Shown piece after piece: positions 1 through 35,267 of a DNA stretch of 64,000 nt. This stretch comes from Escherichia coli. Its GTDB lineage: Bacteria; Pseudomonadota; Gammaproteobacteria; Enterobacterales; Enterobacteriaceae. The stretch lies in assembly GCF_003018115.1 (NCBI RefSeq), contig NZ_CP027457.1; one strand, given 5' to 3'. The notes under the pieces are model-generated. The model saw nothing but the letters and a program-made list of their open reading frames with translations. It was not told the DNA's origin and did not search any database. Positions within the stretch are counted from its first letter, which is position 1. Each line of letters starts with the position of its first letter. A program made the position numbers and the translations under genes.

Positions 1-1
1 C

Positions 2-502: not shown

Positions 503-513
503 CCATCAACGAA

Positions 514-535
514 AAAGCCCACATCTGTGGGCTTT
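514..535 (+). terminator. Rho-independent terminator hairpin
   Basis: Perfect inverted repeat AAAGCCCACA-tc-TGTGGGCTTT immediately after the stop codon. Confidence 0.6.
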
Positions 536-662
536 CATGTCGCCAGGAGCCGCGGCTCCTTTGCGTATCCTTTTTTGTCTCCTCACCGTCTGGTCGGTGT
601 CCTGCTGAGACTGCTAACTTCCTGTTTTTGTTGGTGTTGTCCTTACACCGTCCAATCATGAT

Positions 663-707
663 TGGTGGAGCTGGCGGGAGTTGAACCCGCGTCCGAAATT
701 CCTACAT
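663..707. repeat. attL: 45-bp duplicate of the ssrA 3' end (prophage core attachment repeat)
   Basis: TGGTGGAGCTGGCGGGAGTTGAACCCGCGTCCGAAATTCCTACAT identical to 34905..34949; identity ends at 708. Confidence 0.85.
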
Positions 708-792
708 ACCATTTTCACTATAATAAAAACATTAACTTGCGTTTAAAATCAGTAAGTTAGTATTATCTTGTGTTTGCTCGTTTTACTCATTT

Positions 793-2868: not shown

Positions 2869-2871
2869 AAG

Positions 2872-3510
2872 TTAGAGGTTCTTGATTACTTTGACTGCAC
2901 GTCCTAGGACTTCCACATCATCTACAGAACATTCAAATGAAGTGTCATCTTGGTTAACTACTATTTTGTTTCCGGGTATGCGCGCAATTTTGACGATGCT
3001 TTTAACTCCGTCCATATCGACTAACCAGAAGCCATTACTGACTTGTTTAACAGACGTATCCACTACAAAGCTATCATTAGCTGTTTTAACAAATAAAGCG
3101 TTGGATGAGTCACCATCGAGCAGGCTGCTATCAAGAAGAATTTCATCACTTGGCTGCAGTTCGCCGTTCTTCAGTTCAACACGTTTGATGCTAGGAGCGA
3201 CGATCTTAGAAAGTGGTCTTACAGTGACAGGAGGTTCATTTTTGAGATTTGTTTCTTCGTTCTCACACGCATACATATCTCCTTGACCAGTAGCCAGCCA
3301 TAGAAGGGAAACTCCTGTTTCAAGGGCACATTGGATTACCCATTCGGCAGGAAAGCTATCCCTTAAGTATCTGTTAGCCATAGTGCTTTTTGATACTTCC
3401 AGATGTTCGCAGAGCTGCTGTCGTGAGCTGAAGTTGTAAGCCTTAATAAGCCTATTAATCGCATCGCGCCCACCACTATCATTCCCCGCCTTGATTAAAC
3501 TCATAATCAA
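2872..3510 (-). CDS. cI: phage 186 CI-type immunity repressor (N-terminal HTH, C-terminal oligomerisation domain)
   Basis: 212-aa ORF divergent from apl/cII; position next to int; HTH-like SRQQLCEHLEVSKSTMANRYL. Confidence 0.75.
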   Translation of the reverse strand: MIMSLIKAGNDSGGRDAINRLIKAYNFSSRQQLCEHLEVSKSTMANRYLRDSFPAEWVIQCALETGVSLLWLATGQGDMYACENEETNLKNEPPVTVRPLSKIVAPSIKRVELKNGELQPSDEILLDSSLLDGDSSNALFVKTANDSFVVDTSVKQVSNGFWLVDMDGVKSIVKIARIPGNKIVVNQDDTSFECSVDDVEVLGRAVKVIKNL

Positions 3511-3620
3511 ACCTCTTGATGTATATAAAAAGTGATCCTAATATCCATCCATGGTTTGAAAAGCAAAACCAAACCACATAAAACAAGATAAAACGAAACC
3601 AAACTAAGAGATACTGCACT
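3511..3620. promoter_or_regulatory. lysis-lysogeny switch region with face-to-face promoters/operators between cI and apl; candidate rightward promoter TTGAAA(3556-3561)-17 bp-TAAAAC(3579-3584)
   Basis: AT-rich 110-bp divergent intergenic region between repressor and excisionase/Cox-like gene. Confidence 0.35.
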
Positions 3621-3863
3621 ATGAGTACTGATATTTCAATTCGTGTACCAAAAGAGATGGCTACGCCTGCAGAGTTCGCGGAATGGGAAGGTATCTCCCG
3701 CGGCTCCGTGTATCAAAAAATTCACCATGGTCAGCTTGCTAAATACATGGTCAAGAAAGAAAAAAACAAAGGCCGCGTAAGCCTGCGTTATTTAATGTAC
3801 AAAACCGATCAGGTCCGTGAATCCCTCGGTCATTCCAACTTCCGCGTCATTGTTGGTAAGTAA
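3621..3863 (+). CDS. apl: Apl/Cox-like excisionase and transcriptional regulator
   Basis: 80-aa ORF first in the early rightward operon, opposite cI; HTH-like EFAEWEGISRGSVYQKIHHGQL. Confidence 0.7.
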   Translation: MSTDISIRVPKEMATPAEFAEWEGISRGSVYQKIHHGQLAKYMVKKEKNKGRVSLRYLMYKTDQVRESLGHSNFRVIVGK

Positions 3864-3895
3864 GTTCAATTATGAGAACTTTCTAAGGGGGTAGC

Positions 3896-4405
3896 ATGTT
3901 TGATTATAAGATTTCCAAACACCCGCATTTTGATGAAGCCTGTAGAGCTTTTGCACTTCGTCACAATATGGCGAAGCTGGCAGAACGTGCAGGAATGAAT
4001 GTCCAGACTTTGCGAAACAAACTCAACCCAGATCAACCGCATCAGCTAAATGCGCCAGAAATCTGGCTGCTTACCGATCTGACTGAAGATTCAACGCTGA
4101 TAGATGGTTTTCTGGCACAGATTCACTGCCTGCCATGTGTACCGATTAATGAGGTAGCAAAAGAGAAACTGCCGCATTACGTCATGAGTGCAACTGCAGA
4201 GATCGGGCGTGTTGCTGCTGGTGCGGTATCTGGCGATGTAAAAACCAGTGCAGGTCGTCGTGATGCTATCAGCAGCATTAACTCTGTAACACGACTGATG
4301 GCGCTGGCTGCTGTTTCATTGCAGGCCCGTTTACAGGCTAACCCGGCGATGGCGAGTGCAGTTGATACCATGACTGGCCTTGGTGCTTCATTCGGTTTGC
4401 TGTGA
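3896..4405 (+). CDS. cII: CII-like lysogeny establishment activator (186 CII-type)
   Basis: 169-aa ORF directly after apl with RBS; HTH near N-terminus (MNVQTLRNKLN); 186-like order. Confidence 0.65.
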   Translation: MFDYKISKHPHFDEACRAFALRHNMAKLAERAGMNVQTLRNKLNPDQPHQLNAPEIWLLTDLTEDSTLIDGFLAQIHCLPCVPINEVAKEKLPHYVMSATAEIGRVAAGAVSGDVKTSAGRRDAISSINSVTRLMALAAVSLQARLQANPAMASAVDTMTGLGASFGLL

Positions 4406-4412
4406 GGTGCTT

Positions 4413-4613
4413 ATGCTTACGAAAGAACCATCATTTGCATCACTGCTGGTTAAACAAAGCCCGGCAATGCACTACGGTCACGGCTGGATCATGGGTGAGG
4501 ATGGTAAACGCTGGCATCCGTGCCGTTCACAAGATGAATTGCTGGCAGAACTATCTACGAAAAAACGGGGGAACAAATGGCTATTGAAGGCGCTGCGGCG
4601 ACTGTTCCATTAA
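4413..4613 (+). CDS. hypothetical early protein (186 fil position)
   Basis: ATG at 4413 preceded by GAGGTG; 66 codons; early operon. Confidence 0.45.
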   Translation: MLTKEPSFASLLVKQSPAMHYGHGWIMGEDGKRWHPCRSQDELLAELSTKKRGNKWLLKALRRLFH

Positions 4614-4918
4614 GCCCCGGTGAACGCCTGAATGGACTTAATCATATTGCGGAGTTAAGGGCGAAAGTTTTTGGTCTTAATATTGAGTCAGAGCTTGAGC
4701 GGTTTATTAAAGATATGCGTGATCCACGGGATATTAATAGCGAACAAAATAAACGGGCACTGGCTGCCATATTCTTTATGGCAAAAATTCCAGCTGAACG
4801 TCATAGCATCAGCATTAATGAGCTGACCACTGACGAAAAGCGGGAGTTGATTAAAGCAATGAATCATTTTCGTGCAGTGGTGAGCTTATTTCCCAGACGG
4901 TTAACCATGCCGAATTAA
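4577..4918 (+). CDS. hypothetical early protein (186 dhr position)
   Basis: 113-aa ORF with RBS, in early operon. Confidence 0.5.
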   Translation: MAIEGAAATVPLSPGERLNGLNHIAELRAKVFGLNIESELERFIKDMRDPRDINSEQNKRALAAIFFMAKIPAERHSISINELTTDEKRELIKAMNHFRAVVSLFPRRLTMPN

Positions 4919-4985
4919 TCAACTAATGAAATTAATGGCGTAAACCCGCCGGGCATCCCTTTATCTAAATTCAGGAGAATTGATT

Positions 4986-5219
4986 ATGCGTAATATTGAA
5001 ACCCTCACGACTAAAACCGGACCGGATGATGCAGGTCTTAATCTTTTACTGACAGAGGCCCGTCTTGAAGAATGCCGGGCAAGGGCTGAAGCAATGGCAG
5101 CTCGCCTTGATAGTCTGGCGTGTCATATTACATCCCGCCAGCTAAACCACGTCGAAGCGGCAGAACTGCTGCGTGTGACTGCTGAAGCAATCCAGAACGA
5201 AGCGCAGGAGATCCACTAA
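4986..5219 (+). CDS. hypothetical early protein
   Basis: ATG at 4986 preceded by CAGGAG; stop overlaps next start (TAATG). Confidence 0.5.
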   Translation: MRNIETLTTKTGPDDAGLNLLLTEARLEECRARAEAMAARLDSLACHITSRQLNHVEAAELLRVTAEAIQNEAQEIH

Positions 5220-5446
5220 TGGCTGATGCAATGGATCTCGTACAGCAGCGCGTTGAAGAAGAACGCCAGCGCCATATCCGTGCTGCCCGTGCCAGAACGC
5301 CGGGCGTGTCACGCGTGCTTTGCATTGAATGTGAAGCGCCAATTCCGCCAGCAAGACGCCGCGCCATTCCGGGAGTGCAGCTTTGCATTACCTGCCAGGA
5401 AATAGCAGAGCTGAAAGGCAAACATTACAACGGAGGTGCTGTATGA
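5219..5446 (+). CDS. TraR/DksA-family C4 zinc-finger protein
   Basis: CxxC...CxxC pattern (CIECEAPIPPARRRAIPGVQLCITCQ); 75 aa; translationally coupled to neighbours. Confidence 0.7.
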   Translation: MADAMDLVQQRVEEERQRHIRAARARTPGVSRVLCIECEAPIPPARRRAIPGVQLCITCQEIAELKGKHYNGGAV

Positions 5447-6300
5447 GCACCATCCTGAAATGGGCGGGTAATAAAACCGCCGTTATGTCCGAACTGAAAA
5501 AATACCTTCCTGCTGGCCCGCGACTGGTTGAACCTTTCGCGGGTTCCTGTGCAGTGATGATGGAGACGGATTACCCAAGCTATCTGGTAGCGGATATTAA
5601 TCCTGATTTAATCAACCTCTATAAAAAGGTTGCTGCTGATTGTGAGGTGTTTATATCTCGCGCCAGAATTTTGTTTGAGGAAGCAAACAGTGAGCTGGCT
5701 TATTACAACATAAGGCAGGAGTTTAATTACTCAACTGAAATTACTGATTTCATGAAATCGGTATATTTCCTGTATCTCAATCGTCATGGTTACCGTGGGT
5801 TATGTCGCTATAACAAGAGCGGGCATTTCAACATTCCCTACGGTAATTATAAAAAACCGTATTTCCCTGAAAAAGAAATTCGCGCATTTGCAGAGAAAGC
5901 CCAGCGGGCAACGTTTATCTGCGCCAGCTTTGATGAAACGCTGGCGATGTTGAAGGCGGGGGATGTGGTGTATTGCGATCCGCCGTATGACGGTACGTTT
6001 TCCGGCTATCACACTGATGGCTTCACTGAGGATGACCAGTATCACCTGGCATCCGTTCTTGAACATCGATCATCTGAAGGTCATCCGGTCATTGTTTCTA
6101 ACAGTGACACATCCCTGATTCGTTCGCTGTATCGCAATTTCACTCACCACTACATCAAGGCAAAACGCAGCATCGGCGTGTCGGCTGGCGAGAGTAAATC
6201 TGCAACAGAAATCATTGCTGTTTCCGGGGCGCGCTGCTGGGTGGGATTTGATCCTTCGCGTGGCGTGGATAGTTCTGCTGTGTACGAGGTGCGTGTATGA
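5443..6300 (+). CDS. dam: DNA adenine methyltransferase (Dam-like, probable GATC N6-adenine MTase), orphan
   Basis: Motif [10 protein letters not shown] and motif IV DPPY; strong similarity pattern to E. coli Dam ([24 protein letters not shown]); ATG 5443 with GGAGGTG RBS. Confidence 0.85.
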
Positions 6301-8711
6301 GTCATGACGATATGAGCAACTCTAGCGGCTTTAACGAGGCCGCAGCAGCATTTTCATGGAACGGCCCGAAAAAGGCCATTAACCCTTATCTGGACCCGGC
6401 GGAAGTTGCGCCGGAGTCTGCACTTTCAAACATGATCACTCTGTACGCTGCCGATAACGAGCAGGAACAGCTGCGCCGCGATGCACTGAGTGAGCAGGTC
6501 TGGGAGCGTTATTTCTTTAATGAATCCCGTGATCCTGTCCAGCGCGAAATGGAGCAGGATAAGCTCATTAGCCGCGCAAAGCTTGCGCATGAGCAGCAGC
6601 GTTTTAACCCGGACATGGTCATTCTGGCAGATGTCAGCGCCCAGCCTACCCACATCAGCAAGCCGCTGATGCAACGTATCGAATACTTCAGTAGCCTGGG
6701 CAGGCCAAAGGCTTATTCCTGCTATTTGCGTGAGACGATTAAGCCATGTCTGGAGCGACTGGATTGTGTACGCGACAGTCAGCTATCCGCTTCTTTCCGT
6801 TTTATGGCAAGCCATCAAGGGCTTGAGGGCCTGCTGATCCTGCCTGAAATGAGTCAGGATCAGGTAAAACGCCTGTCCACCCTGGTAGCAGCGCATATGA
6901 GCATGTGTCTTGAGGTCGCTTGTGGTGATTTGTATGCCACCGATGACGTTAAGCCAGAAGAAATCCGCAAGGCATGGGAAAAGGTGGCAGCGGAAACCCT
7001 GCGTCTGGATGTTATCCCGCCTGCGTTTGAGAAACTTCGTCGGAAAAGAAACCGCCGCAAACCAGTGCCCTATGAACTCATACCGGGTTCGATGGCACGT
7101 ATGCTTTGCGCCGACTGGTGGTATCGAAAATTGTGGAAGATGCGTTGCGAATGGCGGGAAGAGCAGTTGCGTGCTGTCTGTCTGGTCAGCAAAAAAGCAT
7201 CTCCCTATGTCAGCTATGAAGCAGTGACGCATAAACGTGAGCAGCGCCGCAAGTCGCTGGAGTTTTTCCGTTCTCATGAACTGGTGAACGAAGACGGAGA
7301 CACGCTGGATATGGAAGATGTGGTAAACGCCAGCAGCAGCAACCCGGCACATCGCCGAAATGAGATGATGGCCTGCGTTAAAGGTCTGGAGCTTATCGCG
7401 GAAATGCGTGGTGACTGCGCCGTTTTCTACACTATCACCTGTCCGTCACGTTTCCATTCCACGCTAAATAACGGCAGGCCCAACCCGACCTGGACAAATG
7501 CGACTGTAAGACAAAGCAGTGATTATCTGGTCGGCATGTTTGCTGCATTTCGTAAGGCGATGCACAAAGCCGGGTTGCGTTGGTATGGCGTGCGGGTGGC
7601 TGAGCCGCACCATGACGGTACTGTGCACTGGCATCTTATGTGCTTCATGCGTAAAAAAGACCGCCGCGCCATCACTGCATTACTGCGTAAGTTTGCCATC
7701 CGTGAAGACCGCGAGGAGCTGGGCAATAACACTGGGCCGCGCTTTAAGTCTGAGCTGATTAATCCGCGCAAAGGAACGCCGACAAGCTACATCGCGAAAT
7801 ATATCAGTAAGAACATTGACGGGCGTGGTCTGGCTGGCGAGATCAGCAAGGAAACGGGTAAATCTCTGCGTGATAACGCTGAATACGTGAATGCCTGGGC
7901 GTCTCTGCATCGTGTTCAGCAATTCCGCTTCTTTGGTATTCCGGGGCGTCAGACTTACCGTGAACTGCGATTGCTGGCTGGTCAGGCGGCAAGGCTACAG
8001 GGTGACAAAAAAGCAGGTGCGCCGGTACTGGATAACCCACGTCTTGATGCCATCCTGGCTGCTGCTGATGCTGGCTGTTTTGCGACCTACATCATGAAGC
8101 AGGGCGGCGTGCTGGTTCCCCGCAAATATCACCTTATCAGAACAGCTTATGAAATTAACGAAGAGCCGACCGCCTATGGCGATCACGGTATTCGTATTTA
8201 TGGCATCTGGTCACCCATTGCAGAGGGCAAGATCTGCACTCATGCAGTGAAGTGGAAAATGGTTAGTAAGGCCGTTGACGTTCAGGAGGCGGCAGCCGAC
8301 CAGGGCGCTTGCGCCCCTTGGACTCGTGGCAATAACTGTCCCCTTGCTGAAAATTTGAACCAACAAGGGAAAGACAAATCAGCTGATGGGGACTCCAGAA
8401 CGGATATTACCCGTATGAATGACAAGGAGTTGCACGATTACCTGCACAGTATGAGCAAAAAAGAGCGCCGGGAACTGGCTGCAAGGTTACGCCAGGTGAA
8501 ACCGAAACGGCGTAAAGACTACAAACAGCGAATTACAGACCATCAGCGACAGCAGCTCGTCTATGAACTGAAGTCCAGGGGATTTGATGGCAGCGAGAAA
8601 GAAGTCGATTTGCTCCTTCGCGGCGGCAGTATTCCGTCAGGAGCAGGCCTGCGTATCTTCTATCGGAACCAGCGTCTGAAGGAAGATGATAAGTGGCGGA
8701 ACCTGTATTAA
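6297..8711 (+). CDS. A: replication initiation endonuclease (P2 gpA-like rolling-circle initiator)
   Basis: 804-aa ORF at the end of the early operon; contains the gpA-family AKYISKN region and HWHLMCFM motif. Confidence 0.8.
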
Positions 8712-10356: not shown

Positions 10357-12138
10357 ATGGCTGAACTATTACCGCAAACAACTTCTATACAAACTATTTA
10401 TTCATGGTTTACTGAAGGTAAGATATTTGTTAATAGACGTTATCAACGAAAATTAGTTTGGACTGCAATAGAGAAACAAAAATTAATTGAATCCATTCAA
10501 AAAAAATATCCAATTCCTGCAGTTCTTCTCGCGGAAAGGGAAAATGATCCTGGCACATATGAAATAATTGATGGCCTACAAAGATTACATGCAATAATGT
10601 CTTTCATCGAAACAGGATATGAATCACTTGATGGAAAACGTTTTAATCTGGACGCTTTTCCCACAGCGAAAAATCGAGCGGATGAAGGTAAGTTTGTTGC
10701 AGTGAAAGCTGATAATCTTTTAAGTCAGCGTGAGGTTACTCAGTTATTGGATTATTCTCTTGCAATGTCCATTATGCGTAATGCGACTGAGAACGAAATA
10801 AATGATGTTTTTGATAGAATTAATACATACGGGCATAGACTTAGTGATCAAGAAAGGCGCCAGGCTGGTATACAAAATAAATTTTCAAATATGGTTAGGG
10901 ATATTGCCTGTTCTATCAGGGGGGATGTATCTGACGACATATTGCTTTTAGAGCAAATGCCGTCTATTAGCATTGATTTGCCACTAACTAAACATGGTTA
11001 CCAAATTCAGTCGGAAGAAGTATTTTGGGTAAAACATGGGATCTTACGTTCAACAGACCTTCGTGACAGTATGGATGAGCAATGCATTGCAGATATAGCA
11101 GCTTGTATTGTTGGAGGTAAGTTAATAGATCGTTCCAAAGATGCGCTTGATCAGATTTATAATAATGAAGATGAAGAGTATAGTCGTATTAGCTCTGCTA
11201 TTAATGTTTATGGTGAAGGAAAATTTGCAGAAGAGTTTAAATTCTGCATCCAGGAAATAACAAAAGTATGTAATAGTGACGGTGAAATTAAACTCAGGGA
11301 TTTAATCTTTACTAAACGTACTACAAATGCTTTCCCAGCCATATTTGCTGTGTTATTTATTGCTTTTCATGAATTACTCATTAAAGAAAATAAGAAGATT
11401 AATAATTATAAAGGTGTAAAAGACAATCTTAATAATATAGTCACTCGACTAGATACTAAAAGATCTGCTACTGGTGGGGAAGAGAGAAGAAAGAATATTA
11501 ATTCTATCATAGGCTTGATTAAAGATAACTTTATTGATAGCGCCGATAGCAGTCATATCTATAATTCTCACAATACGGTGGATATTGAGGATATTTTACG
11601 AAGATCTGAAATAGAGCTTGCAAATTATGAACTGAAACAGGGTTTGTTGATGTTAGGCGGAGAGCGAACTATTGATGATGGCATTCATGAGAAAATATTC
11701 TCCACAATTTGTGCTATTGCTAACATCGGTAAAGGTAACAAGAACGGTGTAGTTGGTAAGTTATTGCTTGGTGTAACAGATAAACCAAGTGATACAAGTA
11801 GAGTAAAAGAGCTTGATGATATAGATGCACATGTAGTTGGTGAGAGAAGTGTTGTTGGTGTTAAAAGAGAAGCTATTAAACTCGGCATATCAATGGAAGA
11901 ATATTATAGACGTTTTTGCGATGAGTTGAAAAAATCTGCTTTGAGTGAGCCTCTTAAATCACAAGTGGTGAGTTTGATTGACTATAATGACTTTTATGGT
12001 TATGGAGTTATAGTTATTACAATTCCACTTCTAGCATCTTATTCTAGTTATGATGGGGATATTTATTATCGTGCTGGCGATAATACCGTAAAAGCAACAG
12101 TTATCGAAGCAGCAGATATTGCAACACGTTTTAAATGA
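10357..12138 (+). CDS. DUF262 (ParB/GmrS-like NTPase/nuclease-fold) N-domain fused to Schlafen/AlbA_2-like C-domain; candidate anti-phage defence protein
   Basis: 593 aa; N-terminal RRYQRKLVW and IIDGLQRLHA motifs (DUF262 signature); C-terminal ELANYELKQ...ICAIANIGKGNKNGVVGKLLLGVTD...IYYRAGDNT resembles AlbA_2/Schlafen core; no H-N-H/DUF1524 motif; AT-rich; between cos and portal gene. Confidence 0.7.
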   Translation: MAELLPQTTSIQTIYSWFTEGKIFVNRRYQRKLVWTAIEKQKLIESIQKKYPIPAVLLAERENDPGTYEIIDGLQRLHAIMSFIETGYESLDGKRFNLDAFPTAKNRADEGKFVAVKADNLLSQREVTQLLDYSLAMSIMRNATENEINDVFDRINTYGHRLSDQERRQAGIQNKFSNMVRDIACSIRGDVSDDILLLEQMPSISIDLPLTKHGYQIQSEEVFWVKHGILRSTDLRDSMDEQCIADIAACIVGGKLIDRSKDALDQIYNNEDEEYSRISSAINVYGEGKFAEEFKFCIQEITKVCNSDGEIKLRDLIFTKRTTNAFPAIFAVLFIAFHELLIKENKKINNYKGVKDNLNNIVTRLDTKRSATGGEERRKNINSIIGLIKDNFIDSADSSHIYNSHNTVDIEDILRRSEIELANYELKQGLLMLGGERTIDDGIHEKIFSTICAIANIGKGNKNGVVGKLLLGVTDKPSDTSRVKELDDIDAHVVGERSVVGVKREAIKLGISMEEYYRRFCDELKKSALSEPLKSQVVSLIDYNDFYGYGVIVITIPLLASYSSYDGDIYYRAGDNTVKATVIEAADIATRFK

Positions 12139-21923: not shown

Positions 21924-22818
21924 CCTTTCGCAGTTGCCTGCACCGCAGATTGTGGATGTGCCGGACTTTGAGACGCTGCTTGCCGAACGCAAGGCAGAAT
22001 TTGTGGCGCTTCATCCGAAAGATGAGCAGGAAGCCGTGATCCGAACGTTGGAACTGGAATCTGAACCCGTCACTAAATTGTTGCAGGAGAACGCTTACCG
22101 TGAGTTGCTTCTGCGCCAGCGCATTAACGAAGCCGCGCAGGCGGTGATGGTGGCTTACGCGATGGGCGGCGATCTTGACCAGCTCGCTGCCAACTACAAC
22201 GTGACACGCCTGACGGTGACGCCTGCTGATAATGATGCTGTGCCGCCCGTTGCAGCTGTGATGGAAAGCGATGAAGCGTTACGCCTGCGTGTGCCTGCAG
22301 CCTTTGAAGGGCTTTCTGTTGCGGGGCCAACTGCAGCTTATGAATTTCATGCCCGAAGCGCCGACGGTAGGGTGGCGGATGCCAGTGCAACCAGCCCGGC
22401 ACCTGCAGAGGTGGTGCTGACTGTCCTTAGCCGCGAAGGCGATGGAACTGCAGAAAAAGACCTGCTGGACGTGGTGGAAAAAGCTCTGAACAGTGAGAAC
22501 GTCCGCCCGGTGGCTGACCGTCTGACGGTTCGCAGCGCAGAAATCATCCCGTATCGCGTGGAAGCTACCATTTTTCTCTATCCGGGACCGGAAGCAGAGC
22601 CGGTAATGGCAGCGGCAAAAGCCAGCCTGCAGAAGTACATCGCCAGTCAGACGCGTCTTGGTCGGGATATTCGCCGTAGCGCCATCTTTGCCGCCCTGCA
22701 TGTTGAGGGTGTGCAGCGTGTGGAGCTGGCTTCTCCTCTGGCGGATGTGGTCCTGAACAAAACACAGGCGGCATCATGTACGCAGTGGAGCGTAACCAAC
22801 GGAGGAACGGATGAATAG
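21910..22818 (+). CDS. J: baseplate protein (P2 gpJ-like)
   Basis: 302 aa from ATG 21910 (same length as P2 gpJ). Confidence 0.8.
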   Translation: MAVIDLSQLPAPQIVDVPDFETLLAERKAEFVALHPKDEQEAVIRTLELESEPVTKLLQENAYRELLLRQRINEAAQAVMVAYAMGGDLDQLAANYNVTRLTVTPADNDAVPPVAAVMESDEALRLRVPAAFEGLSVAGPTAAYEFHARSADGRVADASATSPAPAEVVLTVLSREGDGTAEKDLLDVVEKALNSENVRPVADRLTVRSAEIIPYRVEATIFLYPGPEAEPVMAAAKASLQKYIASQTRLGRDIRRSAIFAALHVEGVQRVELASPLADVVLNKTQAASCTQWSVTNGGTDE

Positions 22819-23416
22819 TCTGCTGCCACCGGGTTCAACTTCACTGGAGCGCCGACTGGCGCAAACCTGTAGCGGGATTTCTGATCTGCAGGTGCCGCTG
22901 CGTGACTTGTGGAATCCGGCTACCTGTCCGGTCAGCTTCCTGCCTTATCTCGCCTGGGCGTTCTCTGTGGATCGCTGGGACGAGGGCTGGACAGAAAGCG
23001 TCAAACGCCAGGTAGTGAAGGATGCTTTTTATATTCATCAGCATAAAGGAACCACCAGTGCCGTGCGGCGGGTGGTGGAACCGTTCGGATTCCTGATCCG
23101 CATTATTGAGTGGTGGCAGACCGGAGAGGCTCCGGGCACGTTTCGCCTGGATATCGGCGTGCAGGACCAGGGCATCACTGAAGATACCTATCTGGAACTT
23201 GAGCGACTGATAAGCGATGCCAAACCATGTAGCCGCCACATGATCGGCATGTCCATCAATCTGCAGACCAGCGGCCCGCATTGGGTGGGAGCCGCCAGCT
23301 ATCTTGGCGAAGAAATCACGATCTATCCGTATATCAACGAAACAATTATTTCCGGTGGCACCGCGCATGAAGGCGGGGCGGTCCATGTTATTGACACAAT
23401 GAGAGTGAATCCATGA
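22811..23416 (+). CDS. I: baseplate protein (P2 gpI-like)
   Basis: 201 aa; GGAGG RBS. Confidence 0.75.
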   Translation: MNSLLPPGSTSLERRLAQTCSGISDLQVPLRDLWNPATCPVSFLPYLAWAFSVDRWDEGWTESVKRQVVKDAFYIHQHKGTTSAVRRVVEPFGFLIRIIEWWQTGEAPGTFRLDIGVQDQGITEDTYLELERLISDAKPCSRHMIGMSINLQTSGPHWVGAASYLGEEITIYPYINETIISGGTAHEGGAVHVIDTMRVNP

Positions 23417-24835
23417 GCACAAAATTTTATACCCTGCTGACGGATATTGGCGCGGCGAAACTTGCCAGCGCCGCCGCGCTCGGTGTGCCGCTAAAAATTA
23501 CCCATATGGCGGTGGGCGATGGCGGCGGAGCATTGCCGACGCCGGACGCAAAGCAGACGGCACTGGTAAATGAGAAACGCCGGGCTGCGCTGAATATGCT
23601 CTATATCGACCCGCAGAACAGCAGCCAGATTATTGCTGAACAGGTGATCCCTGAAAATGAGGGTGGTTGGTGGATACGTGAAGTGGGTCTGTTTGATGAG
23701 TCCGGGGCATTGATTGCCGTAGGCAACTGCCCGGAAAGCTATAAGCCGCAACTGGCTGAAGGCAGCGGGCGCACCCAGACCGTGCGCATGGTGCTGATTA
23801 CCAGCAGCACGGACAATATCACCCTGAAAATCGACCCTGCCGTCGTGCTGGCAACCCGCAAGTATGTGGATGACAAGGTACTGGAGCTGAAGGTGTTCGT
23901 GGATGATAAGATGGCAAAACATCTTGCCGCACCGGACCCGCATTCACAGTATGCACCCAAAGAAAGCCCGACATTGACCGGAACACCCAAAGCGCCAACG
24001 CCAGCGGAGGGGAATAACACCACGCAGATTGCGACCACCGCGTTTGTTCAGGCCGCTATTACTGCTCTGATTAACGGTGCGCCAGCCACGCTGGACACAC
24101 TGAAAGAAATTGCCGCAGCCATTAACAATGACCCGAAATTCAGTACCACCATTAACAATGCGCTGGCACTAAAAGCACCGCTGTCGAGTCCGGCACTCAC
24201 CGGAACGCCAACAGCACCTACTGCGGCACAGTCGGTCAACAATACACAGATTGCCACTACAGCTTTTGTGAAATCAGCGATTGCGGCAATGGTGGGTTCT
24301 GCACCTGCTGCACTGGATACACTGAACGAACTGGCGGCGGCGCTGGGGAATGACCCGAACTTTGCCACGACAATGTTGAATGCGCTGTCAGGCAAACAAC
24401 CGCTGGACAATACGCTGACTAATTTGAGTGGAAAGGATGTTGCTGGTCTTCTCGCATACCTTGGTTTGGGAGAAGCGGCAAAACGGGATGTGGGGACAGG
24501 GGAAAATCAGATACCGGACATGGCCTCTTTTGCCAGTGGTGATGGATGGATGAAATTACCCAACGGGAAAATCCTGCAATATGGTCGTGGTGCGGTTACG
24601 CCGACATTATCGACGCAAAACAATGAGAATTACATTCAGCATTCCTTTCCCCAAAAAAGCGGACTGCGCCATGCTTACTCATTCTGGTGATGGCGGTGCG
24701 CCTTTAGGCGCTGGGCGAGGGTTCGTGATGACTGCAGAAGGCCCAACGTTAACCGGCTTTAATTCTGCTTACAGAACGTCATCAACCAGCGACACGGTAT
24801 CGATGAATTACAGTTGGTGGGCTGTTGGTGAGTAA
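23413..24835 (+). CDS. H: tail fibre protein (P2 gpH-like); variable C-terminal part lies inside the invertible segment; apparent +1 frameshift at C4A6 run 24649..24658
   Basis: Collagen-like repeats (TGTPKAPT.., TGTPTAPT..); frame from 23413 stops at 24690 while an overlapping frame (24581..24835) runs open to just before tfa; removing one A from A6 joins them. Confidence 0.7.
24449..24474. repeat. invertase crossover site (left), TTCTCGCATACC-TT-GGTTTGGGAGAA
   Basis: 26-bp imperfect dyad inside H at the GLGE codons; right half is the exact reverse complement of the left half of the site at 26358..26383. Confidence 0.6.
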
Positions 24836-24855
24836 TTTTATTCAGGGTGATTTAT

Positions 24856-25299
24856 ATGAACGAATATGTTTATAGCGCAAGGCATAATGCTTTTTTCCCT
24901 GTGGATATGATTGATAAATATAAATCAGAGGGATGGGATTTATCAGACGCTAAGGAAGTAAATCAAAATATTATCAGTGAGTTTATGGCTGAACCGCCAC
25001 AAGGAAAAATCCGTATTGCCGGAGATGATGGGCTGCCTGCGTGGGCAGATATTCCTCCACCCACGCATGAAGAGCTTATTGAAATTACTGAATCAGAAAG
25101 ACAGCTACTAATTAACCAGGCCAACGAATACATGAACAGTAAGCAATGGCCCGGTAAAGCCGCTATTGGTCGTCTGAAAGGTGAGGAACTGGCGCAATAT
25201 AATTTGTGGCTGGATTATCTGGACGCACTGGAGCTGATCGATACTTCCGGTGCGCCAGATATTGAATGGCCTACGCCTCCGGCAGTTCAGGCCAGATGA
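24856..25299 (+). CDS. tail fibre assembly protein (Tfa, gpG/U-like)
   Basis: Follows the fibre gene in current orientation. Confidence 0.75.
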   Translation: MNEYVYSARHNAFFPVDMIDKYKSEGWDLSDAKEVNQNIISEFMAEPPQGKIRIAGDDGLPAWADIPPPTHEELIEITESERQLLINQANEYMNSKQWPGKAAIGRLKGEELAQYNLWLDYLDALELIDTSGAPDIEWPTPPAVQAR

Positions 25300-25873
25300 C
25301 ATCCGGCGCTGTGCTGGTATCTGTTGCCGTCACCGCGTCAATGTAATCCAGCACAGCGTTAAGGCGGGTTGTTTCTGCCTGCGTCAGCTTCCGTCCGGCC
25401 TGTAATTTCAGTTGAATCAGACTGATGGAGGCCATTGCAGTATCAATCAGCGACTGGCGCTGTGCTTCTGCTGCATCTACTGCTGCGCCGTGCTGTGCCT
25501 TGGTATCTGTCACCCATTTCTCACCATTCCATTCATCGTATGGCGTTAACGGGGCGATAGTGGTTGTATTTTCAGGATAATCACCCGGAGCTGTGATTTC
25601 TTTCGATTCTCCTGTTTCGATGCTATAGACGATTTCACCGCGATGATCTGGCACATATTCCCATGAATTTAAATTCACAGAACGACAGATTGCATAACCA
25701 ACCTTATGTATGCCTGGTGCATCAAGACAGGAACATGCCGGAATACCGACACCAACAGCAAGATATTCAGTTGACGTGGAAATATATTCCCGTGTTTCAC
25801 CATCGTAGTTATAAACGGTAACATCCCCTGCCTTTGTTGCAATAAGGTCACTATTTAATATTGCTTTATGCAT
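25271..25873 (-). CDS. alternative tail fibre assembly protein (Tfa')
   Basis: 200 aa on opposite strand within invertible segment; C-terminal ...DTSTAPDVIWPELPEA parallels Tfa ...DTSGAPDIEWPTPPA. Confidence 0.75.
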   Translation of the reverse strand: MHKAILNSDLIATKAGDVTVYNYDGETREYISTSTEYLAVGVGIPACSCLDAPGIHKVGYAICRSVNLNSWEYVPDHRGEIVYSIETGESKEITAPGDYPENTTTIAPLTPYDEWNGEKWVTDTKAQHGAAVDAAEAQRQSLIDTAMASISLIQLKLQAGRKLTQAETTRLNAVLDYIDAVTATDTSTAPDVIWPELPEA

Positions 25874-26370
25874 CAGGCTGCCCTCACGATATAATTAAAT
25901 GCAATATTACGCGGACGCGTTTCTGAGGCTGCGGCACCTAAACCAGCCACTGATTGTTTATATGTTTTAAAGGTTCCATAATCCGGTGCTGGTAATCCGG
26001 CATCGTTTGTGTTTCCTCTTTTGATAATGTCAGTGCCACTATTTACCCAGCTTTCATCAAAATAGAAATTAATAGTTGCATCAGTCACAATCGTGGATCT
26101 TGACGGTAATCCATGAGCATGATCCTCCGTTGCATATCCCTGAATACTTAAAATAGAGCGACCTGTATCAATCCCCGCCCGTCATCCCAGCCACGAATAA
26201 ACTCACCACGTAAATCAGGCAATTTATTTGTCGGGTAAACTTTTGCCAGTTCCGGGTATTCTTCAGCAGAAAAAGCTGCACCATTGCATTTCAGCCAGCC
26301 TGTAGGCGGAGTGGCTGAAGGCCACGGAACAGGGACACCAACAGGTAATGCAGAGCCTTCTCCCAAACCA
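25873..26370 (-). other. alternative tail-fibre variable C-terminal segment (H'), promoterless, with apparent frameshift at C4 run 26173..26176
   Basis: Minus-strand reading from the crossover site: ...GLGEGSALPVGVPVPWPSATPPTGWLKCNGAAFSAEEYPELAKVYPTNKLPDLRGEFIRGWDDGRG, then frame shifts to ...DTGRSILSIQGYATEDHAHGLPSRSTIVTDATINFYFDE... Confidence 0.6.
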
Positions 26371-26383
26371 ACGTTTATGAAAA
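26358..26383. repeat. invertase crossover site (right), TTCTCCCAAACC-AA-CGTTTATGAAAA
   Basis: Inverted relative to left site; core dinucleotide AA vs TT. Confidence 0.6.
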
Positions 26384-26438
26384 TGCAGAGATAATGGCTA
26401 ACTGGCATCATCCCCGGTTTTTATTCAGGGGATTGATC

Positions 26439-27005
26439 ATGCTTATTGGCTATGTACGCGTGTCAACAAATGACCAGAACACCGATTTGCAACGTAATGC
26501 ACTGAACTGCGCGGGATGTGAGCGGATTTTTGAGGACAAAATCAGTGGCACTAAGTCCGACAGACCGGGGCTTAAAAAACTGCTCAGGACACTATCGGCA
26601 GGTGACACACTGGTTGTCTGGAAGCTGGACAGGTTGGGGCGCAGTATGCAGCATCTTGTTACGCTGATAGAAGAGTTGCGCCAGCGTGGCGTGAATTTCC
26701 GAAGCCTGACTGACAGTATTGATACCAGTACCCCAATGGGCCGTTTCTTTTTTCATGTCATGGGTGCCCTGGCTGAAATGGAACGCGAACTGATAGTTGA
26801 ACGTACCAGGGCAGGGCTGGCTGCAGCTCGTGCCAAAGGCAGAGTAGGTGGGCGTCGTCCTAAGTTGACCACCGAACAGTGGGCACAGATTGGACGTTTA
26901 CTCGAGGCCGGAGAATCAAGACAGCGTATTGCACTGATTTTTGATGTGGGCGTTTCTACCATTTATAGAAAATTTCCGGTGAATGAGAGCAATGAATCGC
27001 CCTGA
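26439..27005 (+). CDS. serine DNA invertase (Gin/Hin/Cin/Pin family)
   Basis: MLIGYVRVSTNDQNTDLQRNAL (catalytic Ser in VRVST) and C-terminal HTH; 188 aa. Confidence 0.9.
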   Translation: MLIGYVRVSTNDQNTDLQRNALNCAGCERIFEDKISGTKSDRPGLKKLLRTLSAGDTLVVWKLDRLGRSMQHLVTLIEELRQRGVNFRSLTDSIDTSTPMGRFFFHVMGALAEMERELIVERTRAGLAAARAKGRVGGRRPKLTTEQWAQIGRLLEAGESRQRIALIFDVGVSTIYRKFPVNESNESP

Positions 27006-27053
27006 GTCAGCATTATTTTGATTTTTCCTGTAAGCGGACAAATACCGTTATTT

Positions 27054-27071
27054 TGTGTGAATAACGACACA
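27054..27071 (+). promoter_or_regulatory. Ogr-dependent late promoter dyad TGT-N12-ACA (pF-like)
   Basis: TGTGTGAATAACGACACA about 85 bp upstream of FI. Confidence 0.6.
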
Positions 27072-27147
27072 ACTGCGCTTAGCTGTTTGTCAGGCACAAT
27101 CACTTCAACATAGGGCGAAGCCTAATCCAATCAGGAGGTTCGCCACT

Positions 27148-28320
27148 ATGGCTCAGGATTACCACCACGGGGTGCGCGTTGTTGAAGTCAACGAAGGCAC
27201 CCGATCTATTACCACGGTGAGCACCGCCATCGTGGGTATGGTCTGCACGGGCGATGATGCCGATGCAAAAATGTTTCCTCTTAATAAACCCGTGCTGATC
27301 ACTGATGTGCTGACTGCCAGCGGTAAAGCGGGTGAGTCAGGTACTCTGGCCCGTTCGCTGGATGCCATCGCTGACCAGGCAAAACCCGTGACCATTGTTG
27401 TGCGTGTGCCGCAGGGTGAAACGGAAGACGAAACCACGACCAATATCATCGGCGCAGTGACTGCTGAAGGTAAAAAAACAGGTATGAAAGCCCTGTTATC
27501 TGCCCAGTCACAGCTCGGCGTTAAACCGCGCATTCTCGGCGTGCCAGGCCACGACACCAAGGCGGTAGCTACTGAGTTGCTGAGCGTGGCGCAAAGCCTG
27601 CGTGGATTTGCTTACCTGTCAGCGTATGGCTGCAAGACAGTGCAGGAGGCGATCACTTACCGCGAAAACTTCAGCCAGCGCGAAGGGATGCTGATCTGGC
27701 CTGACTTTACTGGTTGGGACACGGTGCTGAATGCCGAAGCAACGGCATATGCCGCCGCCCGTGCGCTTGGTCTGCGCGCCAAAATTGACGAGCAGACCGG
27801 ATGGCACAAAAGCCTGTCCAACGTGGGCGTGAACGGTGTCACCGGAATTTCTGCAGATGTGTTCTGGGATCTGCAGGACCCGGCAACCGATGCAGGTCTG
27901 CTGAACCAGAACGACGTCACCACGCTTGTGCGTAAAGACGGTTTCCGCTTCTGGGGTTCCCGCTGCCTGAGTGATGACCCGCTCTTTGCCTTCGAAAACT
28001 ACACCCGCACGGCGCAGGTGCTGATGGACACGATGGCAGAAGCACACATGTGGGCGGTGGATAAACCGCTTAACCCGTCGCTGGCCCGCGACATTATCGA
28101 AGGTATCCGCGCCAAAATGCGCAGCCTGGTCAGTCAGGGCTATCTCATTGGTGGTGATTGCTGGCTGGATGAGTCGGTGAACGACAAAGACACGCTGAAA
28201 GCCGGAAAACTCACCATCGACTACGACTACACGCCAGTGCCGCCACTTGAAAACCTGATGCTGCGTCAGCGCATCACCGATCAGTACCTGGTGAATTTCG
28301 CCAGCCAGGTCAGCGCGTAA
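27148..28320 (+). CDS. FI: tail sheath protein (P2 gpFI-like)
   Basis: 390 aa; strong RBS AGGAGG; synteny. Confidence 0.85.
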
Positions 28321-28329
28321 GGGGACAAC

Positions 28330-28845
28330 ATGGCATTACCACGCAAATTAAAACACCTGAACCTGTTTAACGACGGGAACAACTGGCAGGGGATCGTTGA
28401 GTCGCTGACGCTGCCGAAATTTACCCGCAAATATGAGAAGTATCGCGGCGGCGGAATGCCGGGTGCGGTGGATGTGGATCTGGGGCTTGATGACAGTGCG
28501 CTGGACACAGAATTTTCCATTGGTGGTACTGAATTGCTGCTGTTTAAACAGATGGGTAAAGCCACGGTGGATGGCATCCAGCTGCGCTTTACCGGCTCTA
28601 TTCAGCGTGACGATACCGGGGAAGTGCAGGCCGTGGAGCTTGTCGTGCGTGGACGTCACAAAGAAGTGGATTCCGGCGAGTGGAAGACGGGCGAAAGCAA
28701 CACCACCAAAGTGACCAGTACCAACAGCTACGCGAAGCTGACCATCAATGGTGAGGTGCTCTATGAAGTGGACCTTATCAACATGGTGGAAATTGTGGAC
28801 GGTGTGGACCTGATGGAAGCGCACCGCAACGCCCTCGGCCTCTGA
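28330..28845 (+). CDS. FII: tail tube protein (P2 gpFII-like)
   Basis: 171 aa; synteny. Confidence 0.85.
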   Translation: MALPRKLKHLNLFNDGNNWQGIVESLTLPKFTRKYEKYRGGGMPGAVDVDLGLDDSALDTEFSIGGTELLLFKQMGKATVDGIQLRFTGSIQRDDTGEVQAVELVVRGRHKEVDSGEWKTGESNTTKVTSTNSYAKLTINGEVLYEVDLINMVEIVDGVDLMEAHRNALGL

Positions 28846-28899
28846 TATATCTGAACGGCGCGGGATACCGCGCCAGAACCCAATTGACAGGACAGCAAA

Positions 28900-29202
28900 A
28901 TGAGCGATAAGCAGACTGAAAAGACCATTCAACTGGATACCCCCATCAAGCGCGGTAAAACAGAAATCACCGAAATTGTGCTGCGTAAACCGCAGTCCGG
29001 TGCGCTGCGCGGTACACGCCTGCAGGCCATTATGGATATGGATGTAAACGCGATGATGACCGTGATCCCCCGCATCTCCAGCCCGGCGCTGACTGCACAG
29101 GAAATTGCAGAGATGGACCCGGCAGATCTCACTGCCATGTCGGTTGAGGTTGTCACTTTTTTGTTGAAGAAGTCGGTGCTTGCCGGTTTACCGACAGCCT
29201 GA
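28900..29202 (+). CDS. E: tail assembly chaperone (P2 gpE-like)
   Basis: 100 aa, precedes tape measure gene. Confidence 0.75.
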   Translation: MSDKQTEKTIQLDTPIKRGKTEITEIVLRKPQSGALRGTRLQAIMDMDVNAMMTVIPRISSPALTAQEIAEMDPADLTAMSVEVVTFLLKKSVLAGLPTA

Positions 29203-29336
29203 CGGTTGACGATCTGGTGGCAGATATCGCCACCATTTTTCACTGGCCGCCATCCGTTACTGACGTTATGCCGCTGACCGAAGTGCTGGAATGGCGGTAT
29301 AAAGCGATTCAGAGAAGCGGGGCCAACGATGAGTGA
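29157..29336 (+). other. programmed -1 translational frameshift: slippery heptamer TTTTTTG (29157..29163) and E' extension ending at TGA 29334..29336
   Basis: T6G slip site near end of E; -1 frame is open for 59 codons and ends as T begins (G/GT-like tail chaperone arrangement). Confidence 0.65.
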
Positions 29337-32300
29337 TAACAACCTGCGTCTGCAGGTCATTCTTAATGCGGTTGACAAGCTCACCCGCCCATTTCGATCT
29401 GCGCAGGCCAGTTCAAGAGAACTGGCTGCTGCTGTCAAAAAATCCCGCGATGCAATAAAGCAGCTTGATCAGGCCGGGAGCAGTCTGGACAGCTTCCGAA
29501 AGCTGCAGGCAGAAAATCAGAAATTAGGCGACAGGCTGAACTATGCCCGCCAGCGTGCAAATTTGCTCAGTCAGGAACTGGGAGCGATGGGGCCGCCTTC
29601 GCAACGTAAGGTTGTTGCTCTGGGCCGTCAACGGCTGGCTGTTCAGCGCCTGGAAGAACGCCAGAAAAAGCTGCAGCAGCAGACGGCGCTTGTGCGTGCT
29701 GAACTGTACCGGGCGGGAATTTCTGCGAAAGACGATGCGGGAGCAACTGCCCGTTTAGCCCGTGAAACATCACGTTATAACCAGGAACTTTCGAAACAGG
29801 AGGCGCGGCTGAAGCGACTGGGGGAAGCTCAGCGCAGGATGAATGCAGCGCGTGCCAGTTATGCCCGTTCGCTGGAGGTGCGTGATCGTATTGCAGGTGC
29901 CGGAGCCACCACCACGGCTGCAGGGCTGGCAATGGGTGCGCCAGTGATGGCGGCAGTAAAAAGCTATACCAGCATGGAAGATGCCATGAAAGGTGTGGCA
30001 AAGCAGGTCAATGGTCTGCGTGACGATAATGGCAACCGCACTGCACGTTTTTATGAAATGCAGGATGCCATCAAGGCTGCCAGCGAACAGTTGCCGATGG
30101 AAAACGGTGCGGTGGACTTCGCTGCACTGGTTGAAGGTGGTGCGCGCATGAACGTCGCAAATCCTGACGACAGCTGGGAAGATCAGAAACGTGACCTGCT
30201 GGCCTTCGCCAGTACGACAGCAAAGGCGGCAACAGCCTTTGAGCTGCCAGCGGATGAACTGTCAGAAAGTCTGGGGAAAATCGCCCAGCTCTACAAAATC
30301 CCCACCCGCAATATTGAACAGCTCGGTGATGCGCTGAACTATCTGGATGATAACGCCATGTCGAAAGGGGCAGACATCATTGATGTGATGCAACGTCTGG
30401 GCGGTGTGGCTGACCGTCTGGATTATCGTAAAGCGGCGGCGCTGGGTTCCACCTTCCTGACACTGGGCGCTGCGCCAGAGGTTGCAGCCAGTGCAGCAAA
30501 CGCGATGGTGCGTGAATTGTCCATTGCCACCATGCAAAGCAAGAGTTTCTTTGAAGGGATGAATCTGCTGAAACTCAATCCTGAAGTGATTGAAAAGCAG
30601 ATGACGAAGGATGCGATGGGAACCATCCAGCGCGTGCTGGAGAAGGTAAACGCGCTGCCGCAGGACAAGCGCCTGTCTGCCATGACTATGTTGTTTGGTA
30701 AAGAGTTTGGCGATGACGCGGCGAAACTGGCAAACAACCTGCCGGAACTGCAGCGTCAGTTAAAATTGACAGCGGGCAATGATGCGCTTGGCTCCATGCA
30801 GAAAGAATCCGACATTAACAAGGATTCACTTTCTGCGCAGTGGTTGCTGGTCAAAACCGGAGCGCAGAACACCTTCAGCAGCCTGGGCGAAACGCTGCGC
30901 CAGCCGCTGATGGATATTCTGTACACGGTGAAAAGCGTCACGGGGGCGTTGCGTCGCTGGGTGGAAGCTAACCCGGAACTGACAGGCACACTGATGAAAG
31001 CATCGGCTGTTGTGGCTGCGGTTACCGTCGGCCTCGGCACCTTAGCGGTGGCGCTGGCTGCAGTGCTGGGGCCGCTGGCAGTGATCCGTCTGGGATTCTC
31101 TGTGTTGGGTATCAAAACGTTATCTTCCGTTACGGCAGCAGTAACTCGAACCAGCAGCGCGTTGTCCTGGCTGGCTGGCGCACCACTGGCACTGCTGCGA
31201 CGCGGGCTTGCTTCATCGGGCAACGCCGCAGGTTTACTTACTGCGCCGTTGTCGTCTTTGCGCCGCACGGCATCACTGACGGGAAATGTCCTGAAAACTG
31301 TAGCAGGTGCGCCGGTTGCACTTTTGCGGTCTGGATTATCCGGTTTACGTGCGGTTGCTGTGATGTTTATGAATCCACTGGCAGCACTACGCGGCGGGCT
31401 GGCTGCCGCAGGCACGGTGCTGCGAGTACTGGCATCTGGTCCGCTGGCGATGCTGCGCGTTGCCCTGTATGCCGTATCTGGTCTGTTAGGTGCTCTGCTC
31501 AGTCCGATAGGTCTTGTGGTTACTGCACTGGCGGGTGTGGCACTGGTTGTCTGGAAATACTGGCAACCCATCACCGCATTTCTCGGTGGCGTGGTGGAAG
31601 GATTCAAAGCGGCGGCAGGTCCCATCAGTGCAGCGTTCGAACCGCTTAAGCCTGTGTTCCAGTGGATTGGTGACAAAGTGCAGGCGCTGTGGGGCTGGTT
31701 TACTGATCTGCTGACGCCCGTTAAGTCGACTTCTGCCGAACTGCAGAGCGCAGCGGCAATGGGGCGACGATTCGGGGAGGCACTGGCGGAAGGGCTGAAT
31801 ATGGTTATGCATCCGCTGGACTCCCTGAAATCTGGCGTTTCCTGGTTGCTGGATAAACTCGGCATTGTCAGTAAAGAGGCTGCAAAGGCGAAACTGCCGG
31901 AAAGCGTGACGCGTCAGCAACCTGCGACGGTGAATGCAGACGGTAAAGTGATGATGCCATCGGGTGGTTTTCCGTCATGGGGATATGGCTTTGCGGGGAT
32001 GTATGACAGCGGCGGCTATATCCCGCGCGGGCAGTTTGGCATCGTCGGTGAAAACGGGCCGGAAATTGTTAACGGCCCGGCAAATGTGACCAGCCGGAGA
32101 AATACAGCTGCACTGGCTGCCGTTGTTGCCGGAATGATGGGCGTTGCTGCCGCGCCTGCAGAGCTTCCACCGTTGCACCCTTTGGCACTTCCCGCGAAAG
32201 GCGGCGAAGCGATGGTGAGTCGTGCAGCCACTGTGCCGCCCGTTCAACGGATTGAGGCACCGATGCAGATCATCATTCAGACGCAGCCAGGACAAAGTGC

Positions 32301-34904: not shown

Positions 34905-35267
34905 TGGTGGAGCTGGCGGGAGTTGAACCCGCGTCCGAAATTCCTACATCCTCGGTACTACATGCTTAGTCAGTCTTTACATTCGCTTGCCAGCTGCGGA
35001 CGGACACGCCACTAACAAACTAGCCTGATTAAGTTTTAACGCTTCAACCCCTGGCAGGGCTTCCACGCGATCTCTTTTGGGTTTGACCTCTCTTGATCCC
35101 CGTCCTAAGAGCGGAGGCTAGGGAGAGAGGGCTCTAAGCAGGTTATTAAGCTGCTAAAGCGTAGTTTTCGTCGTTTGCGACTATTTTTTGCGGCTTTTTA
35201 CGAGGCCAACCGCCCCTCGGCATGCACCTTGGGTTTCGCAAATCCCGTCGAATCCAGAATCAGCCCC
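34905..35267 (-). ncRNA. ssrA: tmRNA (SsrA), complete; 3' 45 nt form attR
   Basis: Reverse complement matches the E. coli tmRNA from GGGGCTGATTCTGGATTCGACGGG to ...GGTTCAACTCCCGCCAGCTCCACCA, including the tag-encoding region. Confidence 0.95.

Follow-up and report, generated by a model that had tools for sequence, protein, structure and literature searches.

The described systems closest to the locus considered here are invertible tail-fibre segments, namely the P segment of the e14 element of Escherichia coli K-12 (pinE, stfE/tfaE and ycfK(stfP)/tfaP), the G segment of Mu with its invertase Gin, the C segment of P1 with its invertase Cin, and the invertible loci of P2-like prophages, as in enteropathogenic E. 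coli (EPEC) E2348/69 and Escherichia phage pro483 (NC_028943). Inversion of the e14 segment in culture has been documented, and inversion has been shown experimentally in the P2-like prophages of EPEC E2348/69 (PMC4272514). In P2-like fibres, receptor specificity resides in the C-terminal tips (PMC5285337). The stretch analysed here, 64,000 nucleotides (nt) of contig NZ_CP027457.1 from E. coli assembly GCF_003018115.1 (hereafter the window), carries a P2-like prophage with a switch of the Pin/Gin type. The reading favoured, at a probability of roughly 55% for the whole, is that this prophage is in early decay, that it has inherited two frameshifts, one in the integrase gene and one in the fibre tip that is now expressed, and that a further frameshift in the silent tip, at a run of four Cs, is slightly likelier to be an under-called base than a mutation.

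The elements of the switch are listed below in window coordinates; comparison loci and contigs are cited by number (L001 and so on).

23413 to 24690, plus strand: tail-fibre gene (P2 H-like) in its present orientation, made up of the constant N-terminal part and tip 1; Pfam Phage_tail_fib at residues 1-150.
24449 to 24475, no strand: left crossover site, within the fibre open reading frame (ORF), TTCTCGCATACC-TT-GGTTTGGGAGAAG.
24617 to 24620, plus strand: A4 run, the one-base insertion that breaks tip 1, in the context GC-AAAA-CAATG; A3 in intact relatives (MAFFT and BLAST alignments).
24621 to 24835, plus strand: out-of-frame remainder of tip 1 (frame B, TMRITFSIPFPKKADC...WWAVGE, then a stop), holding most of the Gp53-like_C receptor-binding domain.
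24649 to 24658, plus strand: C4A6 run, not the lesion; the same CCCCAAAAAA stands in L002 and L003 with A3 upstream.
24856 to 25299, plus strand: tip-1 tail-fibre assembly chaperone, 147 aa, intact; Pfam Caudo_TAP, E=1.4e-30; 100% identical over 147 aa to the gene of L008.
25271 to 25873, minus strand: TfaE-like tip-2 assembly chaperone, 200 aa, intact; Pfam Caudo_TAP, E=2.8e-31; 100% identical to relatives.
25873 to 26372, minus strand: alternative tip 2, silent here; Pfam Collar, E=7.6e-16 (26151-26372), then a T4 gp37-related needle/tip region; split in two frames.
26173 to 26176, no strand: C4 run, the one-base deletion that breaks tip 2; C5 in relatives, and within the lineage only this assembly has C4.
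26357 to 26383, no strand: right crossover site, adjoining the invertase; identical to the pinE-proximal site of K-12 e14.
26439 to 27005, plus strand: serine DNA invertase of the Gin/Pin/Cin/Hin family, 188 aa, intact; Pfam Resolvase, E=2.9e-53, and HTH_7, E=5.4e-15.

The locus is an invertible tail-fibre host-range switch of the Din family (Gin/Cin/Pin/Hin), and every defining feature examined is present. The two crossover sites form a 27-nt inverted repeat with arms that are 81% complementary, and the half-sites are symmetrical around the central TT at 10 of 12 positions in the left site and 8 of 12 in the right. Each tip is followed by a Caudo_TAP gene, and the two cassettes of tip and chaperone face opposite ways. 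In the PDB, the invertase matches the 'DNA-invertase' chains 3uj3 and 4m6f (E=6e-92, residues 1-183), which we take to be Mu Gin, and its N-terminus, MLIGYVRVSTNDQ, has a serine at position 9, presumably the catalytic position in Gin; the tail sheath gene comes after it. When the segment is inverted in silico, fibre residues 1 to ~350 are joined to tip 2. Both orientations occur among near-identical prophages with 100% identical switch sequences, with the window, L036 and L041 one way and L008/L010 and L012 the other, and therefore the invertase still works and the switch still flips. The alignment with L008 changes strand inside the left crossover site, at 24461-24475. The exact invertase and TfaE-like proteins were found on ~19 contigs, and in many assemblies the segment also forms a separate contig of its own, ~1.9 kb long. 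The sequence-only reading had taken the crossover sites, both Tfa genes and the invertase to be intact, as indeed they are. The serine invertase recombines the two inverted sites, one of which lies inside the fibre gene, and thereby fuses the constant 5' part of the fibre (~350 codons) either to tip 1 (Gp53-like_C, with the 147-aa chaperone) or to tip 2 (Collar plus gp37-like needle, with the 200-aa chaperone).

Fibre genes at such loci are also affected by annotation. In the RefSeq annotation of L001, L002 and L004 (loci 501-1922), an 'incomplete phage tail protein' pseudogene stands beside a separate 136-aa 'gp53-like domain-containing protein'; on translation the fibre ORF of these three loci is continuous (473 aa), an annotation artefact at invertible fibre genes.

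In the orientation now expressed, the fibre gene is frameshifted. The product as it stands has 425 aa, with residues 1-402 native and 403-425 out of frame; 71 residues of Gp53-like_C are lost, and no Pfam match to that domain is left in the 425-aa product. When 4.6 kb around the locus was aligned to four E. coli relatives of 94.5-96.5% identity, only two indels were private to the window, the extra A at 24617-24620 and the missing C at 26173-26176. With one A removed, the gene encodes a fibre of 473 aa, the length found in the intact relatives, to which it is 95-96% identical. The frame-B remainder (24623-24832) matches Pfam Gp53-like_C with E=6.6e-7, and the frame-B stretch differs from L002 by one amino acid. 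An earlier expectation that the downstream frames continue as fibre is thereby upheld, both for tip 1 and for tip 2, which after repair gives the fibre of L010.

The sequence-only reading was right that the expressed tip shifts frame, but it placed the shift at the C4A6 run, and the lesion, A4, lies 29 nt upstream of that run. From the sequence alone it could be seen only that frames A and B are both open over 24581-24690, and the A4 lesion lies inside this overlap. The C4A6 run was ruled out as the frameshift site because L002 and L003, in frame at this point, carry the same run, and the sole nearby indel against the four relatives is the extra A; intact relatives translate ...LSTQTMRITFSIPFPKKADC... 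unbroken through the CCCCAAAAAA run (FPKK). The frame of L002 is intact throughout, and L003 has a frameshift of its own further upstream, near 24216.

The same overlap is what might suggest that the frameshifts are functional, through recoding (+1 ribosomal slippage at CCC-C, or transcriptional slippage on the A6 of C4A6) or through homopolymer phase variation on top of inversion. The C4A6 run lies within the stretch where both frames are open, and a +1 shift there would give ...FPKKADC..., identical to the intact protein from there on; if this were the case, the prophage would make a full-length tip-1 fibre with an altered patch of nine residues. This is very improbable. The rescued product would still have those nine wrong residues within Gp53-like_C, the intact relatives encode a single continuous ORF with A3, and the split arrangement is not conserved; as the homologues encode one continuous ORF of 473 or 515 aa, the locus does not show the conservation that marks a programmed ribosomal frameshift. 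No stimulatory element was seen, though no search was aimed at one. Useful slippage rates call for runs longer than 4-5 nt. Contingency loci have a long tract, usually of at least 7 nt, the length of which varies among close relatives. Here both tracts have 4 nt, where relatives have 3 (A run) or 5 (C run); A4 is fixed in every lineage member with no length polymorphism, and C5 is found in all 11 lineage contigs sampled without bias, so that the locus does not have the character of a homopolymer contingency locus.

A4 is a real, inherited allele of the prophage lineage. Lineage contigs were recovered by fetching contigs with the exact invertase and TfaE-like proteins, and regular-expression census and alignment showed A4 in this prophage on no fewer than 11 independent contigs, some of them small ones from draft assemblies, Logan or metagenomes (L008/L010, L012, L013, L015-L019, L033, L036 and L041); this recurrence is what marks A4 as real and inherited. 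L008/L010 (GCA_051443285.1) is 100% identical to the window over 22440-24475 and 26357-31005, with the segment inverted. L036 (GCA_050544425.1) has no single-nucleotide polymorphisms (SNPs) in 6.5 kb. For L033/L041 (GCA_014042135.1, a 5.02-Mb contig), the differences amount to 11 SNPs, with no gap, in one alignment of 21.8 kb and to 2 SNPs in another of 14.6 kb. The alignments of the window to L008, L036 and L033/L041 are all free of gaps at 24617-24620. The stand-alone segment contigs L013 and L015-L019, from draft genomes, Logan and metagenomes, all have A4, and L017 among them stands for at least 20 samples. Every homologue examined from outside the lineage has A3. Among 5,426 complete RefSeq E. 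coli genomes there is no identical prophage (best 96.5% for the locus and 97.7% for the segment) and no exact match to the A4 context, for which the best hits were 240-nt alignments with one gap. The exact 425-aa product is present on one contig only.

The second inherited lesion lies at the other end of the prophage, and the sequence-only reading had missed it.

1829 to 2868, minus strand: integrase, split into an Int_N ORF (2868 to 2341, 175 aa) and a catalytic ORF (2353 to 1829, 174 aa) (Pfam), by a 1-nt deletion near 2406.

The deletion lies outside any homopolymer. It shows as a gap in the alignment to L044 and L047, whose integrases are intact (346 aa), and there is no gap against L043, L045 and L046, which align gap-free to window positions 1-7504 and in which the integrase gene was not called. 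From this gap-free alignment it follows that the deletion is common to the lineage, and the integrase frameshift is inherited. With its integrase split in this way, the prophage probably cannot excise. The lineage is thus seen as being in early decay, with vertically inherited one-base frameshifts in the integrase and in tip 1 (A3 to A4), and loss of the integrase would have locked the prophage in the chromosome, to be passed on from there vertically.

The inheritance of A4 also bears on the possibility, raised by the sequence-only reading as its second alternative beside decay, that systematic homopolymer miscalling produced both fibre frameshifts and that the real prophage has two intact tips. 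Both lesions do lie in homopolymer runs, and other complete assemblies have obvious homopolymer errors at this locus: several are found in CV601gfp, and L007 (CP138399.1, strain 64EVA) has A7 rather than A6 in the C4A6 run and T7 rather than T6 in the invertase, with fibre and invertase both annotated as frameshifted, which looks like long-read homopolymer error. Against this, A4 recurs in the independent contigs just described, and in alignments of near-identical sequences to ~58 kb of the window the C4 run was the only private indel. No chromosomal gene is disrupted, nor is any of the other prophage genes checked. At 60474-60478, within the 16S rRNA gene, the window reads GACGGGGGCCC, with G5, presumably the canonical sequence, where the comparison genome L005 (LR882990, 28523) has G4. 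Systematic miscalling is thus excluded, and of the two earlier alternatives decay holds for tip 1, given the inherited A4 and the integrase frameshift. A few bases further on, at 60571-60575, a variable stretch differs from L005, probably through rRNA operon heterogeneity.

What is left to be decided is the single base in tip 2. The earlier claim that the silent tip is broken at the C4 of 26173-26176 agrees with the comparison, the relatives having C5. When one C is added and the segment inverted in silico, the result is a 515-aa fibre identical to that of L010; as the window stands, the inverted product has 423 aa, is native to residue 416, and keeps the Collar domain but loses the gp37-like needle/tip. 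In a tblastn search, the intact 515-aa fibre breaks at residues 416/417 on the window. Residues 356-513 of the intact tip-2 fibre match PDB entries 2xgf and 9cuy (T4 gp37 needle/tip). C5 is present in all 11 lineage contigs that were retrieved independently of the C run, and C4 was not seen in any contig, of whatever kind, that was retrieved in this way. The C4 is the sole difference from L036 over 6.5 kb and the sole indel against both L008 and L041; against L008 there is in addition one mismatch, inside the crossover site.

It is slightly likelier that this C4 is a single long-read homopolymer under-call than that it is a real recent mutation. In weighing the two, the sporadic rate of such changes in complete assemblies was set against the number of real indels that a single C5 run should have gained in the short time since the split from L036 and L008, the latter on the basis of general E. 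coli mutation rates. The same C5-to-C4 change, in the same local sequence, occurs in two complete K-12-derived assemblies, JW5437-1 and the noisy CV601gfp; in JW5437-1 it is the sole difference from MG1655 in 3.2 kb. MG1655 and 59 other listed e14-identical assemblies have C5, including CV601, the parent strain of CV601gfp; those listed are the best 60 of 273 records at 99% identity or more, and are mostly from K-12 laboratory strains. These K-12 cases fit either sporadic assembly error or rare mutation. That the site is a hot spot for this change was considered and set aside, JW5437-1 being the only C4 in the best 60 of 273 records and bringing, with CV601gfp, the sporadic cases to two.

Several observations weigh against an error. 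C4 is also found in the diverged natural backgrounds of CP027462 (07-4299) and CP100987 (ET210). The window is otherwise clean, with no further private indel in the ~58 kb compared, although besides the C4 run it holds 34 G/C runs of 5, 57 of 6, and 16 of 7-8, and it is in the longer runs that long-read errors should show up first. A real extra lesion would moreover be unremarkable, because a prophage without an integrase is under no selection to keep its fibre.

The alternative, that the C4 is a real and recent mutation of this strain, with the anatomy and the inherited lesions unchanged, is a serious possibility at somewhat less than even odds. It draws on the observations just given, the clean ~58 kb, the natural isolates with C4 and the relaxed selection on the fibre that would follow from a broken integrase. 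In addition, the prophage has private or near-private SNPs, for example at 3549, which indicate that the strain has diverged from its relatives, and one indel against 11 SNPs from GCA_014042135.1 over 21.8 kb is a plausible natural ratio, judged by general E. coli mutation spectra. On the other side, none of the 11 lineage contigs retrieved without bias shares the C4. Since the flanks are 100% identical to L036 and L008 over 6.5-8.6 kb, there has been little time for a real mutation to arise at one C5 run. The same change is a sporadic singleton in K-12 assemblies whose kin have C5, and a Logan contig with C4 (L023, ERR3550085) is noisy.

Two further sources were tried as evidence on the C run. 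L023 was rejected as clean independent support for a real C4, since comparison with L020 shows four other small deletions in it. As a census of C4, the 71-aa fragment protein (P0016) was only partly usable, as L022 and L025 end before the C run and L024 has C5 with another lesion.

Frameshifts also occur in the invertible segment of a related prophage, L006/L020 (CP027462.1, isolate 07-4299), where they affect the expressed Collar tip (the same C4), tfaE and the gp53-like tip. Its tfaE has C3 where the window has C4 (25825-25828), and the rest of the fetched locus is annotated as intact.

The consequences for adsorption turn on this base. Because the parts missing from the truncated fibres are Gp53-like_C and the gp37-like needle/tip, where receptor specificity resides, such fibres would be expected to fail to fold or to bind receptor, and adsorption would be lost. 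In the lineage at large, a complete fibre would come only from the tip-2 orientation. Should the C4 be an error, one tip of the true prophage is still usable, as in every lineage relative sampled; if it is real, both outputs of the switch are truncated, neither orientation yields a complete fibre, and the C4 would be a third step of neutral decay after integrase loss. The earlier statement that both tips carry frameshifts is correct for the sequence as it stands, but that both tips are dead holds only if the private C4 is real. Given a real C4, a fully conserved and still-flipping invertase, the crossover sites and both chaperones would serve two dead outputs, and the switch or its truncated fibres could conceivably be kept for some other purpose, for example through low-level recoding at CCCCAAAAAA or host use of the tail module, and there would then be more here than young, neutral decay; this is very unlikely.

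Returning to an inherited decay with one suspect base, the remainder of the prophage is in good order. It spans ~0.7 to 34.3 kb of the window and is a P2-like (Peduoviridae) prophage with a 186-type lysogeny module, the defining features examined all being present. Its genes follow the P2 order, Q-P / O-N-M-L-X-lysis-R-S-V-W-J-I-H ... FI-FII-E/E'-T-U-D-ogr, according to the Pfam labels of the relatives' genes, and in tblastn searches with proteins of intact relatives the queried genes map to the window in this order and at full length. Each of the prophage genes queried from CI to D, other than int and the fibre tips, gives a single full-length high-scoring segment pair, and the tape-measure gene is an intact 1025-aa ORF. 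The term 'domesticated' used in the sequence-only reading says too much, since the prophage is complete apart from int and the fibre tips and any role beneficial to the host is hypothetical. Between the replication genes and the portal gene lies a cargo gene for a GmrSD_N (DUF262-type) restriction-like protein (10357-12138, plus strand, 593 aa), which is also found in L033; other P2-like relatives have a HIRAN-domain protein or an unknown gene in this place.

At its ogr end the prophage adjoins the 3' end of ssrA (tmRNA at 34905-35267, minus strand, tag ANDENYALAA), and beside its int end stands the C-terminal part of an autotransporter of the AIDA type (14-502, plus strand). This left junction is common to members of the prophage lineage. 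The chromosome beyond the prophage is 99.9% identical to O169:H41 enterotoxigenic E. coli genomes, and all chromosomal genes in the window are intact. The closest chromosomal relative, L005 (LR882990), has a different integrase-bearing island next to ssrA. In the yfiR-yfiL interval, at window position ~49040 and L005 17055-17085, an indel of ~45 nt separates two alignment blocks.

For annotation, these results mean that the fibre gene is a pseudogene broken at 24617-24620 and not at the C4A6 run, that the integrase gene is a pseudogene too, and that one base at 26173-26176 should be flagged before it is concluded that all adsorption function is lost. The significance beyond annotation is small, the useful outputs being the corrected lesion site, the integrase pseudogene and the flagged base. 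As a procedure, inherited lesions can be told from assembly errors by setting a doubtful homopolymer against copies of the element in independent draft assemblies. Frameshifts, real or artefactual, accumulate in the invertible fibre segments of complete long-read assemblies.

Set beside the known systems, the locus most resembles the P segment of e14. The crossover site proximal to the invertase is identical, tip 2 and tfaE have ~97% DNA identity to e14 stfE/tfaE, and the layout is the same, with a constant fibre part, two opposed tip-plus-chaperone cassettes and a serine invertase. The two differ in that e14 retains a truncated baseplate J gene and fibre fragments (K-12 loci fetched), whereas the prophage of the window is complete save for int and the fibre tips; the second cassette is also different, as L006, which like e14 has tfaP, gives no alignment to window 24476-25195, and in the window both tips are frameshifted. 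With the Mu G segment and the P1 C segment the locus shares a Gin-type invertase (E=6e-92 over 183 residues), crossover sites that are imperfect palindromes of 26-27 bp around a central dinucleotide, and a constant fibre part fused to alternative C-termini, each with its own chaperone after it, but its backbone is P2-like (Peduoviridae) and its tip sequences are different. With the P2-like invertible loci of the EPEC E2348/69 prophages and pro483 it shares the P2-like structural module, the invertase and two assembly genes after the fibre gene. Pro483 matched 82% of the query at 87.5% identity, and its annotation lists a tail collar fibre protein, a DNA invertase and two assembly proteins. The lineage of the window departs from these loci in its integrase and tip-1 frameshifts, to which this assembly adds the one in tip 2. 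Public assemblies already contain this prophage, its A4 and integrase lesions included. P2-like prophages are well known to carry invertible fibre switches, frameshifted fibre genes are likewise well known from prophages, and the locus belongs among them as a further example, with nothing new in kind.

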